25,161 bases of DNA from IMG/VR virus record IMGVR_UViG_2851938318_000004. One strand, given 5' to 3'. Each line of letters starts with the position of its first letter. The first letter of the stretch is position 1. Shown here one piece after another: positions 2,097 through 25,161 of the stretch. The DNA is from a virus (lineage: Duplodnaviria > Heunggongvirae > Uroviricota > Caudoviricetes). The notes beneath the pieces were generated by a model. That model was not told the origin of the DNA and ran no database searches. It saw only the letters and a list, made by a program, of their open reading frames with translations. The translations under genes were made by a program, and so were the position numbers.

Positions 2097-2987
2097 TCAG
2101 GCTGCCAGATCATCGTTTCCGATGGAAGCATAATAAGCTTTTTCTGCTTCTGCCGGAGGAGTATGGCCCAGCCTTCCCAGCAATCGTCGATTGTTATACC
2201 AGTCCACCCACGTGAGTGTGGCCAGTTCCACTTCTGCACGGTTTTTCCAGCTCTTACGGTGTATTACCTCCGCTTTGTAAAGACCATTGATGCTCTCAGC
2301 CATCGCGTTGTCATACGAGTCGCCTGTACTCCCTGTTGATGCCAGTAATCCGGCTTCTTTTAGTCGCTCCGTATAGGCCAGTGACACATACTGAGAGCCT
2401 TTATCGCTGTGATGGATGGTGCCAGACGGACGACGGGCCCACAACGCCTGCTCCAGCGCATCCAGCACGAATGTCGTTTCCATAGACGATGAGACCCGCC
2501 ACCCCACGATGTATCCGGCAAACACATCAATGATAAACGCCACATAGACGAAGCCCTGCCATGTGCTGACGTAAGTAAAATCAGCCACCCACAGCTGGTC
2601 AGGTCGTTCTGCCACGAACTGACGGTTTACGCGGTCGCCTGCGGCAACGGCTTTCCGGCTGATGGTCGTACGGACCTTTTTACCCCGGAGAACACCGGCA
2701 AGTCCCATAACCGCCATGAGACGTGCCACTGTACATCTGGCCACCCTGATTCCTTCCCGTAACAACTGACGCCAGACTTTACGCACACCGTACACCTGAT
2801 GATTTTCATCGTATACGCGCTGTATCTCTCTCTTCAGCCAGTCGTCGTGCTGCGCACGGGCACTGCGTTTATCCGGATGATGTCGCTGTTGCTGACAATG
2901 GTAATACGTTGACGGGGCAATATGCAGTTCGCTGCATACCGGTCCGACCCCGTACTGCTCACGCAGCTTATCCAGCAGTGGCATCAT
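2097..2987 (-). CDS. IS3-family transposase OrfB (DDE integrase-like catalytic domain), IS629-like
   Basis: 296 aa ORF; 5' end overlaps orfA in the -1 frame. Confidence 0.9.
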
Positions 2988-3310
2988 TTTTTCCAGAGGC
3001 GGTCGAACTCCGCCTTCGCAAAATAAGCGGAAGCCTGGCGAAGGATATCGTTACTGCGGCGCAGTTCACGATTTTCACGTTCCAGCTCTTTCAGACGCTG
3101 ACGTTCAGCGCTGGTGAGCCCACCATCACCGCCCCCGGTATCCCGCTCATGCTGGCGAACCCAGACACGCAGAGTCTCCGGCGTACAGCCAATCTTTGGG
3201 GCAATGGAACAAATTGCCGCCCACTGTGAGTCATATTCATCCTGACTTTCCAGAACCATACGAATCGCCCGCTGACGGACTTCGGGGGAAAAACGAGTAT
3301 TTTTAGTCAT
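2984..3310 (-). CDS. IS3-family transposase OrfA (HTH DNA-binding), IS629-like
   Basis: 108 aa, [26 protein letters not shown]... with C-terminal leucine-zipper-like [21 protein letters not shown]. Confidence 0.9.
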
Positions 3311-5424: not shown

Positions 5425-5482
5425 AAAAAGGGCGGCAGAGCAGTCACGGAGTAAAACTGATACCGCCAAACGTCACCAGAAA
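5425..5482 (-). ncRNA. dicF: DicF-like small regulatory RNA (ftsZ-targeting sRNA family), about 58 nt including terminator U-tract
   Basis: Minus strand reads TTTCTGGTGACGTTTGGCGGTATCAGTTTTACTCCGTGACTGCTCTGCCGCCCTTTTT, with a GGCGG...CCGCC hairpin plus T-run. Lies about 170 nt upstream of dicB on the same strand, as in K-12. Confidence 0.7.
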
Positions 5483-6172: not shown

Positions 6173-6325
6173 TCAGTCAGTGTTTCTGGTTAACCAGCGA
6201 CGCGCGCCAGCTTCAGTTTTAAACGTTTTGCTTCTGGTATACGTCATCGCGGTAAACGTGCCGTCCTGGTTGGGAAACACGCCGTACACCAGAGATTCGT
6301 TGTTGCCAAGATCGATAGTATCCAT
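6173..6325 (-). CDS. Small hypothetical protein, 50 aa (YdfA-like position and size)
   Basis: MDTIDLGNNESLVYGVFPNQDG... with GAGG SD; first gene left of the repressor region. Confidence 0.5.
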   Translation of the reverse strand: MDTIDLGNNESLVYGVFPNQDGTFTAMTYTRSKTFKTEAGARRWLTRNTD

Positions 6326-6509
6326 GCTGACCTCATTTCCCCTTAACGCTGGGGTAGCGGAACTAAAAACCTGCTGCGCTGTTATACAAAGTGTTCCCGC
6401 CGTCATGTTCATACGCCTCGGGCTGGCTACTTACCCCCTGACCACTGCTTGGTAACTCGAAGTATTGCCCGGCGTTCTGTGGGGCGGGGTGGGTTGGTAT
6501 GTTGTTAAG

Positions 6510-6523
6510 GTAACAAGAGTTAC
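6510..6523. promoter_or_regulatory. Candidate OL operator: inverted repeat GTAAC-AAGA-GTTAC
   Basis: Same half-sites and 4-nt spacing as the two sites in the cI-cro intergenic region. Confidence 0.4.
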
Positions 6524-6568
6524 CTTTTGGGTTAATACAATGTTGCAAAAGGTACATTTGAGGGCATG

Positions 6569-6590
6569 AAAAACCCGCAATGAATGCGGG
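6569..6590 (-). terminator. Intrinsic terminator downstream of the repressor gene
   Basis: Minus strand CCCGCA-TTCAT-TGCGGG followed by TTTTT, 8 nt after the cI stop. Confidence 0.55.
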
Positions 6591-6597
6591 TTCTGAC

Positions 6598-7272
6598 TCA
6601 GTCTAAGTATTGATGTATTTGTGAAACTTTACCTTTAATGGTGTAACCACCATTCAGTTCGATGGGTTTGTAAAGCGGATTCAGTGACAACAGATAGATG
6701 TTTGGTCCGTCAATCGCAACTTTTTTTAGTGTTACGTTTGGCGTTCCTTCCAATTGGATTAAGATTATTTTTCCCACCAGTTCTCTAATGTTACTTGAGC
6801 ATGGTGTGATCAGCACGGTAGATCCGTCGGGGATGGTTGGGAGGCCGTTAGAGTTTGTCATCGCATCTCCCTCAACATGCAATAAAAAAGAGTTTTCAGC
6901 GGTTTTTGTCATGACATCAACCCAATTCTTAATACCAGGAATCTCGGTTACTGGACAACTCATATCCCAATAACCAGCCTGTTCCCACGTTAAAACGGGC
7001 AACCGGGCGATGTTGTCACTAATGTAAGGGTACTGATTCAGACGCAGATCATCGGCTTTATCGTGACCGTCCTTTCCATAAAGAATCCATTCAGGAGATT
7101 TGGAAAGCAATTTTGACAGTAGATACAAATTCTCACCGTCAGGTTTTGAAGAGCCATTTTCCCATTTTGTTACGGATACACGAGATATGCCGATTGCTTT
7201 CGCAACCTGCTGTTGGGTTAATCCAACGTCTTTTCGACGATTCCGAATACGTTCGCTGATAGTGTTTTTCAT
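6598..7272 (-). CDS. CI-type prophage repressor (N-terminal HTH, C-terminal S24 LexA-like autopeptidase domain), 224 aa from the second in-frame ATG
   Basis: HTH LTQQQVAKAIGISRVSVTKWENG; C-terminal domain with S24-like length and layout. Start at 7272 preferred over 7314 because it leaves a 91-bp operator region before cro. Confidence 0.85.
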   Translation of the reverse strand: MKNTISERIRNRRKDVGLTQQQVAKAIGISRVSVTKWENGSSKPDGENLYLLSKLLSKSPEWILYGKDGHDKADDLRLNQYPYISDNIARLPVLTWEQAGYWDMSCPVTEIPGIKNWVDVMTKTAENSFLLHVEGDAMTNSNGLPTIPDGSTVLITPCSSNIRELVGKIILIQLEGTPNVTLKKVAIDGPNIYLLSLNPLYKPIELNGGYTIKGKVSQIHQYLD

Positions 7273-7334
7273 GTAACCAATGTTACTACCAAGTGATGTT
7301 GCTATGGTTGACATTGTTATGTAACTATTGTTAC
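7273..7334. promoter_or_regulatory. OR-like operator/promoter region: two GTAAC-N4-GTTAC inverted repeats (7273-7286, 7321-7334) flanking a TTGACA hexamer (7308-7313)
   Basis: Inverted repeats read directly from sequence; the first abuts the cI start codon. Confidence 0.5.
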
Positions 7335-7363
7335 CCTTCTACTCGAAATAACAGGAGAGTTTT

Positions 7364-7579
7364 ATGTTCAAAGATGATGTTCTGCGCTATTTCAAAAAAA
7401 AGCGACTAGTAGCTGAGGCTCTTGGAATTTCACATGTGGCTGTTGTGCGGTGGAAAGCAGTTATTCCCAAACTTCGCGCAATGGAACTGGATGAAATTAC
7501 TAACGGTGAATTGAAATACAACCCAGAACTTTACAAGAAGCAGGATAGCACCTCAAACGAAGGAAAGAATGATTCATGA
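7364..7579 (+). CDS. Cro-like HTH regulator, 71 aa
   Basis: HTH segment KKRLVAEALGISHVAVVRWKAV; divergent from the repressor; AGGAG SD. Confidence 0.75.
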   Translation: MFKDDVLRYFKKKRLVAEALGISHVAVVRWKAVIPKLRAMELDEITNGELKYNPELYKKQDSTSNEGKNDS

Positions 7580-8001
7580 AAATCAAGCATGAACACATCC
7601 GCATGGCGATGAATGTCTGGGCGCATCCGGACGGCGAAAAAGTACCGGCTGCGAAAATTACCAAAGCGTATTTCGAGCTGGGAATGACGTTCCCGGAACT
7701 GTATGACGACAGCCATCCGGAAGCCCTAGCCCGTAATACCCAGAAAATTTTCCGCTGGGTAGAGAAAGACACCCCTGATGCAGTTGAAAAAATTCAGGCG
7801 TTGTTACCAGCGATCGAAAAGGCAATGCCACCTTTGCTGGTGGCCAGAATGCGCAGCCACAGTTCAGCTTATTTTCGGGAGCTGGTGGAGACGCGGGAGC
7901 GACTGGTGAGAGACGCTGATGATTTTGTAGCAGTGGCAATCGCCGGTTTCAATCAGATGAACCGTGGTGGCCCGGCAGGAAATGCTGTGGCAGTTCATTG
8001 A
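7576..8001 (+). CDS. ydaT: YdaT-like protein (CII functional-analogue family), 141 aa
   Basis: Begins MKIKHEHI; sits immediately after cro with an ATGA start/stop overlap, the position of cII. Confidence 0.6.
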   Translation: MKIKHEHIRMAMNVWAHPDGEKVPAAKITKAYFELGMTFPELYDDSHPEALARNTQKIFRWVEKDTPDAVEKIQALLPAIEKAMPPLLVARMRSHSSAYFRELVETRERLVRDADDFVAVAIAGFNQMNRGGPAGNAVAVH

Positions 8002-12569: not shown

Positions 12570-12814
12570 ATTCATTACGATATGGGAATTCCCATATCGG
12601 GTAAAAACGGTTTGCGGTAAAGCGAGAGTTAAGTAGAATTGCTGCGGGTGCTTGAGGCTGTCTGCCTCGGGCATGCCACCGTAAGGCAGACAGAGAAAAG
12701 CCCCAGTTAACATTACGCGTCCTGCAAGACGCTTAACATTAATCTGAGGCCCAATCTATGCTTCACAAACGTAGGTTAGCCTCTTACGTGCCGAAAGGCA
12801 AGGAGAAGCAGGCT

Positions 12815-12970
12815 ATGAAGCAGCAAAAGGCGATGTTAATCGCCCTGATCGTCATCTGTTTAACCGTCATAGTGACGGCACTGGTAACGAGGAAAGACCT
12901 CTGCGAGGTACGAGTCCGAACCGGCCAGACGGAGGTCGCTGTCTTCACAGCTTACGAACCTGAGGAGTAA
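12815..12970 (+). CDS. hokD: Hok/Gef-family type I toxin (51 aa), HokD/RelF-like
   Basis: MKQQKAMLIALIVICLTVIVTALVTRKDLCEVRVRTGQTEVAVFTAYEPEE; in-frame upstream extension resembles a mok-like leader; inverted repeat CTGTCTGCC ... GGCAGACAG in the 5' leader. Confidence 0.85.
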   Translation: MKQQKAMLIALIVICLTVIVTALVTRKDLCEVRVRTGQTEVAVFTAYEPEE

Positions 12971-13417: not shown

Positions 13418-14467
13418 GTGCGGGTATTACTTCGACCTGTTCTGGTACCGGAACTCGGTCTGGTTATCGTTAAGCCAGGCCGTGAATCCATGCGGGTATT
13501 TCATGGCGGCAGGGTGCTGGTGGAGTCTGAACCGAAAAGCATGCGTAATCTGCCGTCCGGGGTCGTTCCTGCCGTTCGCCAGCCGCTGGCGGAAGATAAA
13601 TCATTACTGCCATTTTTCAGCAATGAGCGTGTGATTCGTGCTGCTGGTGGCGCTGGTGCACTGTCTGACTGGTTATTACGTCACGTTAAATCCTGCCAGT
13701 GGCCTCATGGTGATTATCATCACAGCGAAACTGTCATACATCGTTACGGTACCGGCGCGATGGTGTTGTGCTGGCACTGCGACAACCAGCTGCGCGACCA
13801 GACATCCGAATCACTTGAGCAACTTGCTCAACAAAACCTGTCAGCATGGATGATTGACGTCATCCGCCACGCAATGAATGGCATACAGGAACGGGAATTA
13901 TCGCTGGCTGAATTATCCTGGTGGGCAGTCTGCAATCAGGTGGTGGACGCATTACCTGAGGCAGTATCGCGTCGTTCTCTGGGATTACCGGCGGAAAAAA
14001 TCCGCTCCGTATACCGTGAAAGCGACATCATACCGGGAGAACAGACCGCCACCAGCATACTGAAGCAGCGCACAAAAAATATTGCGCTACCGCCTCACAC
14101 CCACCAGCAACAGAACCCACCACAGGAAAAGACGGTGGTCAGCATTGCCGTTGATCCGGAGTCTCCGGAATCCTTCATGAAACGACCTAAACGTCGCCGC
14201 TGGGTAAATGAGAAATACACACGCTGGGTAAAGACACAGCCGTGTGCGTGTTGTGGTAAGCCAGCGGACGATCCTCATCATCTGATTGGTCATGGTCAGG
14301 GTGGAATGGGAACAAAATCCCACGATATTTTCACGCTACCGCTGTGTCGGGAGCATCACAACGAGCTTCATGCGGATCCGCTGGCGTTCGAAGAAAAGCA
14401 TGGTTCCCAGGTTGATTTAATTTTTCGTTTTCTTGATCACGCTTTTGCAACCGGCGTGCTCGGGTAA
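13418..14467 (+). CDS. ydfU: YdfU-like DUF968 protein with C-terminal HNH-like Cys/His motif, 349 aa
   Basis: GGAGG SD before GTG start; C-terminal CACCGK...HHLIGHGQGG...CREHHNELH. Confidence 0.75.
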   Translation: MRVLLRPVLVPELGLVIVKPGRESMRVFHGGRVLVESEPKSMRNLPSGVVPAVRQPLAEDKSLLPFFSNERVIRAAGGAGALSDWLLRHVKSCQWPHGDYHHSETVIHRYGTGAMVLCWHCDNQLRDQTSESLEQLAQQNLSAWMIDVIRHAMNGIQERELSLAELSWWAVCNQVVDALPEAVSRRSLGLPAEKIRSVYRESDIIPGEQTATSILKQRTKNIALPPHTHQQQNPPQEKTVVSIAVDPESPESFMKRPKRRRWVNEKYTRWVKTQPCACCGKPADDPHHLIGHGQGGMGTKSHDIFTLPLCREHHNELHADPLAFEEKHGSQVDLIFRFLDHAFATGVLG

Positions 14468-14479
14468 AAGAGGTTACTG

Positions 14480-24838: not shown

Positions 24839-25161
24839 TTTTTCCAGAGGCGGTCGAACTCCGCCTTCGCAAAATAAGCGGAAGCCTGGCGAAGGATATC
24901 GTTACTGCGGCGCAGTTCACGATTTTCACGTTCCAGCTCTTTCAGACGCTGACGTTCAGCGCTGGTGAGCCCACCATCACCGCCCCCGGTATCCCGCTCA
25001 TGCTGGCGAACCCAGACACGCAGAGTCTCCGGCGTACAGCCAATCTTTGGGGCAATGGAACAAATTGCCGCCCACTGTGAGTCATATTCATCCTGACTTT
25101 CCAGAACCATACGAATCGCCCGCTGACGGACTTCGGGGGAAAAACGAGTATTTTTAGTCAT
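24835..25161 (-). CDS. IS3-family transposase OrfA (IS629-like), copy 2; start codon is the last three bases of the window
   Basis: Protein identical to the copy 1 OrfA. Confidence 0.9.

Follow-up and report, generated by a model that had tools for sequence, protein, structure and literature searches.

A GTAAC-N4-GTTAC repeat as the probable operator of a P22 immC-type immunity region in an Escherichia coli prophage

The immunity region considered here lies in 25,161 bp of DNA from a virus of the Caudoviricetes (IMG/VR record IMGVR_UViG_2851938318_000004); this whole stretch is called the window throughout. Within it, a leftward gene for a CI-type repressor and a rightward gene for Cro diverge from an intergenic region of 91 bp. 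A 14-bp dyad, GTAACNNNNGTTAC, occurs twice between the two genes, at places suited to right operators (OR, serving promoter PR), and once beyond the repressor gene, at a place suited to a left operator (OL, serving promoter PL). The genes and repeats are as follows, with positions counted from the first base of the window.

6598-7272, minus strand: CI repressor, 224 amino acids, with HTH_3 and Peptidase_S24 domains (Pfam)
7364-7579, plus strand: Cro, 71 amino acids, P22_Cro family (Pfam PF14549, E = 2.9e-16), with AGGAG before the start
6569-6593, minus strand: intrinsic terminator of the repressor gene, formed by the hairpin AACCCGCA/UGCGGGUU (-16.5 kcal/mol, z = -4.35) with a U run after it
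6510-6523: GTAACAAGAGTTAC, exact dyad, putative operator OL1, inside an 18-bp palindrome AGGTAAC-AAGA-GTTACCT at 6508-6525
7273-7286: GTAACCAATGTTAC, exact dyad, putative OR3 equivalent, adjoining the CI ATG (7270-7272)
7321-7334: GTAACTATTGTTAC, exact dyad, putative OR1 equivalent, over the spacer and -10 of the predicted PR

The Pfam matches of the repressor have E = 3.5e-17 for HTH_3 and E = 9.5e-17 for Peptidase_S24, and terminators equivalent to that at 6569-6593 are present in relatives. The cro-proximal dyad ends 30 bp before cro, while the dyad at 6510-6523 lies 75 bp past the repressor stop codon, beyond the terminator hairpin. The four central bases are A/T-rich in each copy (AAGA, CAAT, and TATT), as they are in most relatives. 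A first-pass annotation, made from the sequence alone, had reported the three copies, two between repressor and cro and one past the repressor terminator; its positions are exact.

Exact matches to the dyad number three in the whole window (starting at 6510, 7273, and 7321), and none of 100 dinucleotide-preserving shuffles of the window contains even one. With up to one mismatch there are four sites against 0.5 expected. The additional site, GTAAAAGAGGTTAC at 14464-14477, is composed of a TAA stop codon and the ribosome-binding site (AAGAGG) of the rusA-like gene that comes next, and is for that reason judged a chance match. Two mismatches add 12 sites in the window against 7.9 expected, so no further copies can be recovered from the motif alone. 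The search for degenerate copies proposed with the first-pass annotation therefore yields no excess, and additional sites come only from positional homology.

Homologues of the repressor protein range from 98% to 44% identity, and the helix-3 sequence RVSVTKWE is invariant in all 16. Two sets of related loci were compared. A scan limited to one genome per species gives 20 loci under 16 genus names (including Yersinia, Buttiauxella, Erwinia, Edwardsiella, Klebsiella, and Arsenophonus) with repressors 43-52% identical; an alignment of OR regions holds 27 distinct loci, three phages among them, with repressors 43-89% identical. At OR positions, the dyad is present exactly or with one mismatch in all 20 genome loci, in phages, and in closer relatives, so none of the homologous immunity regions compared lacks it there. 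At or beyond the repressor terminator it is found in 19 of the 20, the exception being an Arsenophonus locus (L002) that has sites with two mismatches only. In these 20 loci, 67 dyads match with no more than one mismatch, and all but one of them are at positions of OR or OL type if the distant pair of L007 is counted; by our own estimate from motif length, about three to four would be expected by chance in 121 kb. One of the relatives' OR dyads abuts the repressor ATG and one lies exactly 48 bp upstream. Dyads of OL type, one to three in number, lie 48-131 bp past the CI stop codon in 18 of the 20 genome loci; in L007 the OL pair is about 1.1 kb downstream of the repressor gene, with its spacing still 33 bp. 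The phages Pectobacterium ZF40, Escherichia vB_EcoS-733R5, and Pantoea AH07 carry the same layout of OR and OL dyads. Three closer relatives (89%, 68%, and 65% identity) also carry dyads, with OL equivalents in L032 and L033; the Salmonella locus L030 (68%) has no OL site within 200 bp of the CI stop codon because a gene of 204 amino acids sits downstream. One locus labelled Chryseobacterium sp. (L016, CACSKA010000005.1) carries a typical enterobacterial immunity region and leader, and its label probably reflects a mislabelled or contaminated assembly.

No gaps are needed to align the 27 OR regions, whose sites fall at 0, 23, and 48 bp. Of a maximum of 2 bits, an arm position carries 1.89 in the cro-proximal and 1.96 in the CI-proximal dyad, while the spacer between the central and CI-proximal sites has 0.40 bits and the 28 bp upstream of the cro-proximal dyad 0.39 bits. 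Four diverged E. coli copies differ at 13 intergenic positions, some directly adjacent to the dyads (7287 and 7335) and none among the 42 dyad positions; a rough hypergeometric estimate of our own gives P ~0.03 for no variation inside the dyads. In L033, the arms of OL1 are conserved and its four central bases are different.

Related repressors of 36-43% identity that have other recognition helices retain the geometry of two 5-bp arms around four bases (5-N4-5), with altered arms. The arms track the recognition helices of both CI and Cro, which gives four helix/operator classes in one layout.

Window and relatives: CI helix SRVSVTKWE (ZF40, SRVTITKWE); arms GTAAC-N4-G(T/G)TAC; Cro helix SH(P/V)AV(C/V)RW, conserved among dyad-sharing relatives
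mEp390, YeP1, and Lys8385Vzw: CI helix (N/S)RVTVTGWE; arms GTAGG-N4-CCTAC; Cro helix SHASVSGW (mEp390, YeP1) or KHPSVSEW (Lys8385Vzw)
689R6: CI helix SDVAVGYWE; arms CTAAG-N4-CTTAG; Cro helix TTEAVYQW
mEp235: CI helix SNVAISQWE, identical to that of P22 C2; arms TTAAG-N4-CTTAA; Cro helix SDAAVSQW

The OR spacing of 0, 23, and 48 bp is kept in mEp390 and mEp235, while 689R6 has two OR dyads 49 bp apart, the CI-proximal one of which does not adjoin the ATG. The mEp235 repressor is annotated as similar to P22 C2, and its OL sites are 35 bp apart. The N-terminal domain of the window CI itself aligns to P22 C2 (E = 1.4e-12), with matches to lambda CI and P22 C2 in the PDB. On its 18-bp site, P22 repressor makes contact at positions 2-7 and 12-17 but none at the four central ones, where A/T is preferred (PMC4267663); the 14-bp dyad of the window corresponds to positions 3-16 of such a site. 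A homologous C2-like domain, 5-N4-5 sites, and co-varying helices together point to a switch of P22 immC type with a different specificity, and we put a probability of about 85% on the three perfect dyads serving such a switch as its high-affinity operators. The proposal in the first-pass annotation that the dyads predict operator specificity and immunity group gains support from the co-variation of helices and arms across relatives, with the specificity itself still a prediction from sequence.

The promoters and further sites that go with these operators are assigned largely by position.

7308-7337, plus strand: predicted PR, with -35 TTGACA (7308-7313), an 18-bp spacer, and extended -10 TGT-TACCCT (7329-7337)
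6507-6535, minus strand: predicted PL, with -35 TTAACC (6535-6530), a 17-bp spacer that contains OL1, and TGT plus -10 TACCTT (6512-6507)
7298-7311: GTTGCTATGGTTGA, probable degenerate OR2, overlapping the PR -35; assigned by positional homology, with 6 of 10 arm bases matching
6543-6556: GTTGCAAAAGGTAC, probable decayed OL2, with three mismatches; 33 bp away from OL1 and assigned solely from positional homology

In relatives, PR occupies the same position with the form TTGCTA-17-TGT-TACCTT. Both TG (extended -10) and TAC (hexamer) of PR come from the right arm of the dyad at 7321-7334, so that repressor bound there should exclude RNA polymerase, which makes this dyad the candidate OR1. PL of the relatives, TTGAC(A/C)-17-TAC(A/C)TT, lies in the same place with its -10 overlapping the right arm of the operator; it is TTGACA-17-TACCTT in L033, whose -35 is stronger than that of the window. 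The PL transcript would start near 6500. A candidate -10 for the promoter for repressor maintenance (PRM), TAACAT (7285-7280, minus strand), lies inside the CI-proximal dyad, and the left arm of this dyad plus the first two spacer bases reads TAAC(A/C/G)T in every locus. Other classes also have a TAnnnT hexamer at this place, TAGGAT in the GTAGG class and TAAGAT in the P22 type. The gap between dyad and CI ATG is 0 in 26 of the 27 loci, with no Shine-Dalgarno sequence; together with a hexamer 7 nt before the ATG, this probably reflects a PRM -10 and a leaderless cI mRNA. The cI mRNA of lambda is leaderless. All 27 loci have a central OR site, at distances of 23 bp to the cro-side dyad and 25 bp to the CI-side dyad; in relatives it is mostly CAAAC-N4-GTTAC, with arms of 1.57 bits. 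A second OL dyad is found 33-35 bp from OL1 on the CI side in relatives, exact in L032 and degenerate in L033. While the first-pass annotation held that three copies define OL and OR, the three exact sites are thus probably accompanied by a degenerate OR2 and a decayed OL2, for five sites in all.

In the proposed mechanism, a CI dimer and the P22-type Cro would both recognize an 18-bp site with the core GTAAC-N4-GTTAC and an A/T-rich uncontacted centre. CI on 7321-7334 would cover the PR spacer and extended -10 and shut off cro, ydaT, and the replication genes, while the degenerate site at 7298-7311 over the PR -35 would be filled cooperatively. The site at 7273-7286 would cover the probable -10 TAACAT and the start of the leaderless cI transcript, and would mediate both negative autoregulation by CI and shut-off by Cro. 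On the left, CI on 6510-6523 would cover the PL spacer and -10 and silence the ydfA-dicF-dicB operon.

The RefSeq start of the repressor gene is at 7314, giving 238 amino acids. The ATG at 7314 is the complement of the PR -35, and the 14 extra codons are operator and promoter DNA; the extension includes the peptide NIGYM, which is translated operator (AAC ATT GGT TAC ATG). In 12 relatives, the frame upstream of the dyad-abutting ATG reaches a stop codon without another in-frame start. Because of this, and of the 0 gap in 26 of the 27 loci, the true start is most likely at 7272, for a protein of 224 amino acids. Over residues 90-217, the S24 domain can be aligned with lambda CI. The serine of GNSM in lambda CI is the S24 nucleophile, and the aligned position in the window is alanine (GDAM, codon GCG at 6852-6854, minus strand), while the Ala-Gly cleavage site (EQAGYW) and the lysine (TLKKV) are kept. 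All 23 distant relatives, L032, and P0003 have serine; alanine is found in the main E. coli clade, which includes the window, in L033 (89%), and in the Salmonella locus (68%). The Ser-Lys catalytic dyad needed for RecA-stimulated self-cleavage is thus incomplete, and by analogy with LexA S119A, a repressor without self-cleavage, the window CI is probably not cleavable in the SOS response. Repression would then probably not be relieved in this way, a point that does not bear on operator binding. Between the window and L033, both of alanine type, the ratio of nonsynonymous to synonymous substitution rates (dN/dS) is 0.096 at dS 0.59, which indicates purifying selection and argues against a dead relic; the ratio is unusable for L030 and L032 through saturation of dS in both and a frame offset in the latter.

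Several observations weigh against an immC-type switch acting through these operators. The literature searched (for the motif, YdaT-associated operators, ZF40 operators, and CI classes of Stx phages) contains no description of the sites or the repressor. A scan of 6300-7500 with strict sigma-70 consensus and terminator models finds no promoter and misses the CI terminator, so positional homology was used to place the promoters, and folding to place the terminator. The -10 hexamers proposed agree with the consensus at only 3 of 6 positions and depend on the TGn extension and positional homology, and the central OR site (four mismatches) and OL2 (three mismatches) cannot be detected by motif in the window. 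A transcript start at the ATG would place the central site at about -32 of PRM. In lambda, OR2 is at about -42, and activation of PRM by CI therefore cannot be assumed here. Finally, the window is identical to a cryptic prophage adjoining yccA in E. coli E2855, and a switch in a cryptic prophage may no longer flip.

This last point leads to the possibility that the dyads are operators by descent only, left in a decaying switch whose repressor no longer acts on them. The E2855 prophage is degraded, with IS1203 in the exonuclease gene, a frameshifted integrase, and several pseudogenes, and such decay would also fit the lost S24 nucleophile, the decayed OL2 and OR2, and a PL -35 weaker than that of L033. 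Set against this, none of the copies read (the window, the four E. coli variants, and L033) has a broken CI reading frame, the dN/dS of 0.096 stands between two alanine-type copies, and the three strong dyads are invariant while neighbouring bases vary. Of 5,426 complete E. coli genomes, 701 carry the 1.2-kb immunity region with an identity of at least 97% and a coverage of at least 80%. Because the silenced operon encodes the division inhibitors DicB and DicF, we also infer that loss of repression should be counter-selected. A switch that has lost its function is therefore quite unlikely.

It is more doubtful still that the repeats are conserved as promoter elements, or as sites for another factor such as YdaT or a host protein, instead of as operators of CI and Cro. 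Each strong dyad overlaps a proposed -10, so part of its conservation may come from the promoter; but the arm outside the -10 is conserved as well, three different promoters share the one dyad, and the arms change with the CI and Cro helices while the promoter layout stays. YdaT as the binding protein was rejected, as its published motif differs and is located at 7569. Chance recurrence of a palindrome has only the shortness of the motif in its favour, and is refuted by the shuffled sequences and by positional conservation in 27 loci.

The closest characterized system is immC of P22, which shares with the window a C2-type DNA-binding domain, a Cro of the P22_Cro family, and a 5-N4-5 site core with TAA and TTA at the arm centres and an A/T-rich, uncontacted middle (PMC4267663). 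The layout of this type, as seen in mEp235, has three OR sites (0, 23, and 48 bp), of which the central one is half-degenerate, a distance of 33-35 bp between OL sites, and a repressor-proximal site adjacent to the ATG. P22 differs at arm positions 1 and 5 (GTAAC/GTTAC in the window against TTAAG/CTTAA) and in the helix (SRVSVTKWE against SNVAISQWE), and the catalytic serine is alanine in the window. With these operators and this helix, the window falls outside the P22 immunity group. The flanks also differ: YdaT and ydfA-dicF-dicB take the places that c1 and gene 24 have in the gene order of P22.

The logic of lambda is the same, with divergent cI and cro, three OR sites about 23-25 bp apart, PL and OL past the cI terminator, and a leaderless cI mRNA, as the window probably has. 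However, lambda operators are 17 bp long and of other sequence, and lambda Cro belongs to an unrelated fold family. If the transcript starts at the ATG, the window sites would also be shifted by about 10 bp relative to PRM. Qin, with DicA and DicC, resembles the window in having a repressor followed by the promoter for ydfA-(ydfB, ydfC)-dicF-dicB-ydfD; DicA is a short helix-turn-helix (HTH) protein without an S24 domain, unlike the window CI.

CP-933P (PaaR2/YdaS/YdaT) and Rac (RacR/YdaS/YdaT) have the same backbone as the window, with near-identity in the PL leader up to the transcription start, in the YdaT gene, and in the YdaT operator called OM, but their repressor and Cro proteins are unrelated to those of the window and lack an S24 domain. 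In CP-933P, which has PaaR2-PaaA2-ParE2, PaaR2 and YdaS bind OR and OL repeats of consensus GTTTAGTAA, and paaR2 is leaderless (PMC8630535). The window thus has only its flanks in common with the immunity types of CP-933P and Rac. Three isolated phages come closest in operator sequence: 733R5 and AH07 have the recognition helix of the window, that of ZF40 is near-identical (RVTITKWE), and their sites are GTAAC-N4-G(T/G)TAC in the same OR and OL layout. Their repressors are 42-43% identical with an intact catalytic serine, and most of their right arms are GGTAC. They are predicted to be homoimmune with the window at the level of the operators; no operator studies of the cI/cro regions of these three phages were found in the literature.

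The edges of the immunity module can be placed by comparison with prophages of other immunity, and the features at and beyond these edges are as follows.

6326-6503, minus strand: PL leader, the 5' untranslated region of the ydfA-dicF-dicB operon; left module edge, shared backbone
7569-7586: YdaT-type operator ATGATTCATGAAAATCAA, overlapping the cro stop and the ydaT start; right module edge
7576-8001: YdaT-family protein (Pfam)
5430-5481, minus strand: DicF RNA

Left of the repressor gene are DUF1391 (ydfA-like), DicF, dicB, and DUF1482 (ydfD-like) genes. Rac, CP-933P, and other prophages that differ in immunity carry the leader at 6326-6503 with 93-98% identity. Close to the operator, many E. 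coli prophages of other immunity, among them Rac, CP-933P, and the ATCC 25922 prophage, share about 100 bp (6400-6502), with homology ending at the PL -10 and operator; 6503-7568 has no similarity to Rac or CP-933P, and similarity to both resumes at 7569. By these alignments, the exchangeable immunity module at about 6503-7568 is CI, Cro, and the putative operators only, while YdaT and ydfA-dicF-dicB belong to a common backbone because homology to Rac and CP-933P resumes at 7569. The first-pass annotation was right to include CI and Cro in the module, but YdaT falls outside. The mosaic junction it described is real, with homology ending at about 6502, but the arrangement is not odd, as a repressor followed by ydfA-dicF-dicB is usual in this prophage group (the CP-933P and ATCC 25922 loci, and Qin). 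At the right edge, 7569-7586 is one mismatch from TTGATT-N6-AATCAA, the OM site footprinted for YdaT of CP-933P, located where ydaS and ydaT meet (PMC9986795), and is probably a control site of the type of the promoter for repressor establishment in the window prophage.

The PL leader contains a conserved element, which makes up the first ~70 nt of the PL transcript in other genera and in SfV, SfII, SfIV, ST64B, ZF40, YeP1, and phiNP. Its pattern is GCGAACAGGCAGGACGCCCACGAAGTAGCCGCC-stem-GGCGTATGAAG-stem'-GATGATTCGC (for example, L006 3803-3886), and it has the features of a structured RNA of ~65 nt, with compensatory changes at 6 of 15 predicted base pairs. The window retains only a 28-nt core of it (6405-6432, minus strand), and the window leader folds no better than its shuffled versions (z = 0.73). 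The element is unannotated and lies at the nutL/putL place of other lambdoid phages, being located where nutL lies in mEp235. A relation to the put RNA of HK022 was considered and has no support: an nhmmer comparison of the leader with the HK022 nun-cI (putL) region finds no similarity, a search of Rfam with the element gives no family match, the window leader does not fold unusually well, and each locus has a single copy, none being present within 3 kb on the PR side. A different conserved PL leader, …GGTGTGGTAGT(A/G)AGCA(G/T)TACGG(T/C)ATATGGCACATGTGCCGCAGCGG…, is present about 100-200 bp past the CI stop codon in mEp390 (L026) and vB_EcoS-733R5 (L027). Since these two have this leader in common despite different immunity, the leader is another exchangeable module.

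The mechanism of the switch is textbook; the new part is its operator specificity, for which no description was found. The GTAAC-N4-GTTAC specificity would be assigned to an uncharacterized immunity type of 701 of the 5,426 complete E. coli genomes. One immunity specificity should extend across at least 16 genera and several isolated phages with repressors only about 43% identical, and immunity groups in this family should therefore be readable from the recognition helix and dyad arms. Four natural helix/operator pairs in one scaffold form a compact test set for HTH recognition rules, and 6503-7568 defines an exact exchangeable cassette within the Rac/CP-933P backbone. Control of DicB and DicF in carrier strains is predicted to depend on an SOS-uncleavable repressor. 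A wider reading, offered tentatively, sees in this immunity type a domesticated, SOS-blind P22-like switch, its serine-less repressor under purifying selection and its immunity region (97% identity or more) present in ~13% of complete E. coli genomes. On this reading, dicF and dicB would be permanently silenced, and carriers would have constitutive immunity against free phages with GTAAC operators, such as vB_EcoS-733R5. Separately, the PL leader RNA is possibly an undescribed cis-acting element.

At the DNA level, the phage collection searched lacks the 1.2-kb immunity region. Elsewhere in the window, identical matches to the ALIL pseudoknot at 2913-3029 and 24764-24880 (minus strand) mark two copies of an IS3-family insertion sequence (IS1203-like); one copy interrupts the exonuclease gene, which fits a cryptic, decaying prophage. 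The late-regulatory region has gathering-level Rfam matches to the sok antitoxin RNA by hokD, three tRNA genes, and the small RNA STnc100, at the following positions.

12646-12820, 17546-17792, and 17872-18062: Rfam matches in the late-regulatory region

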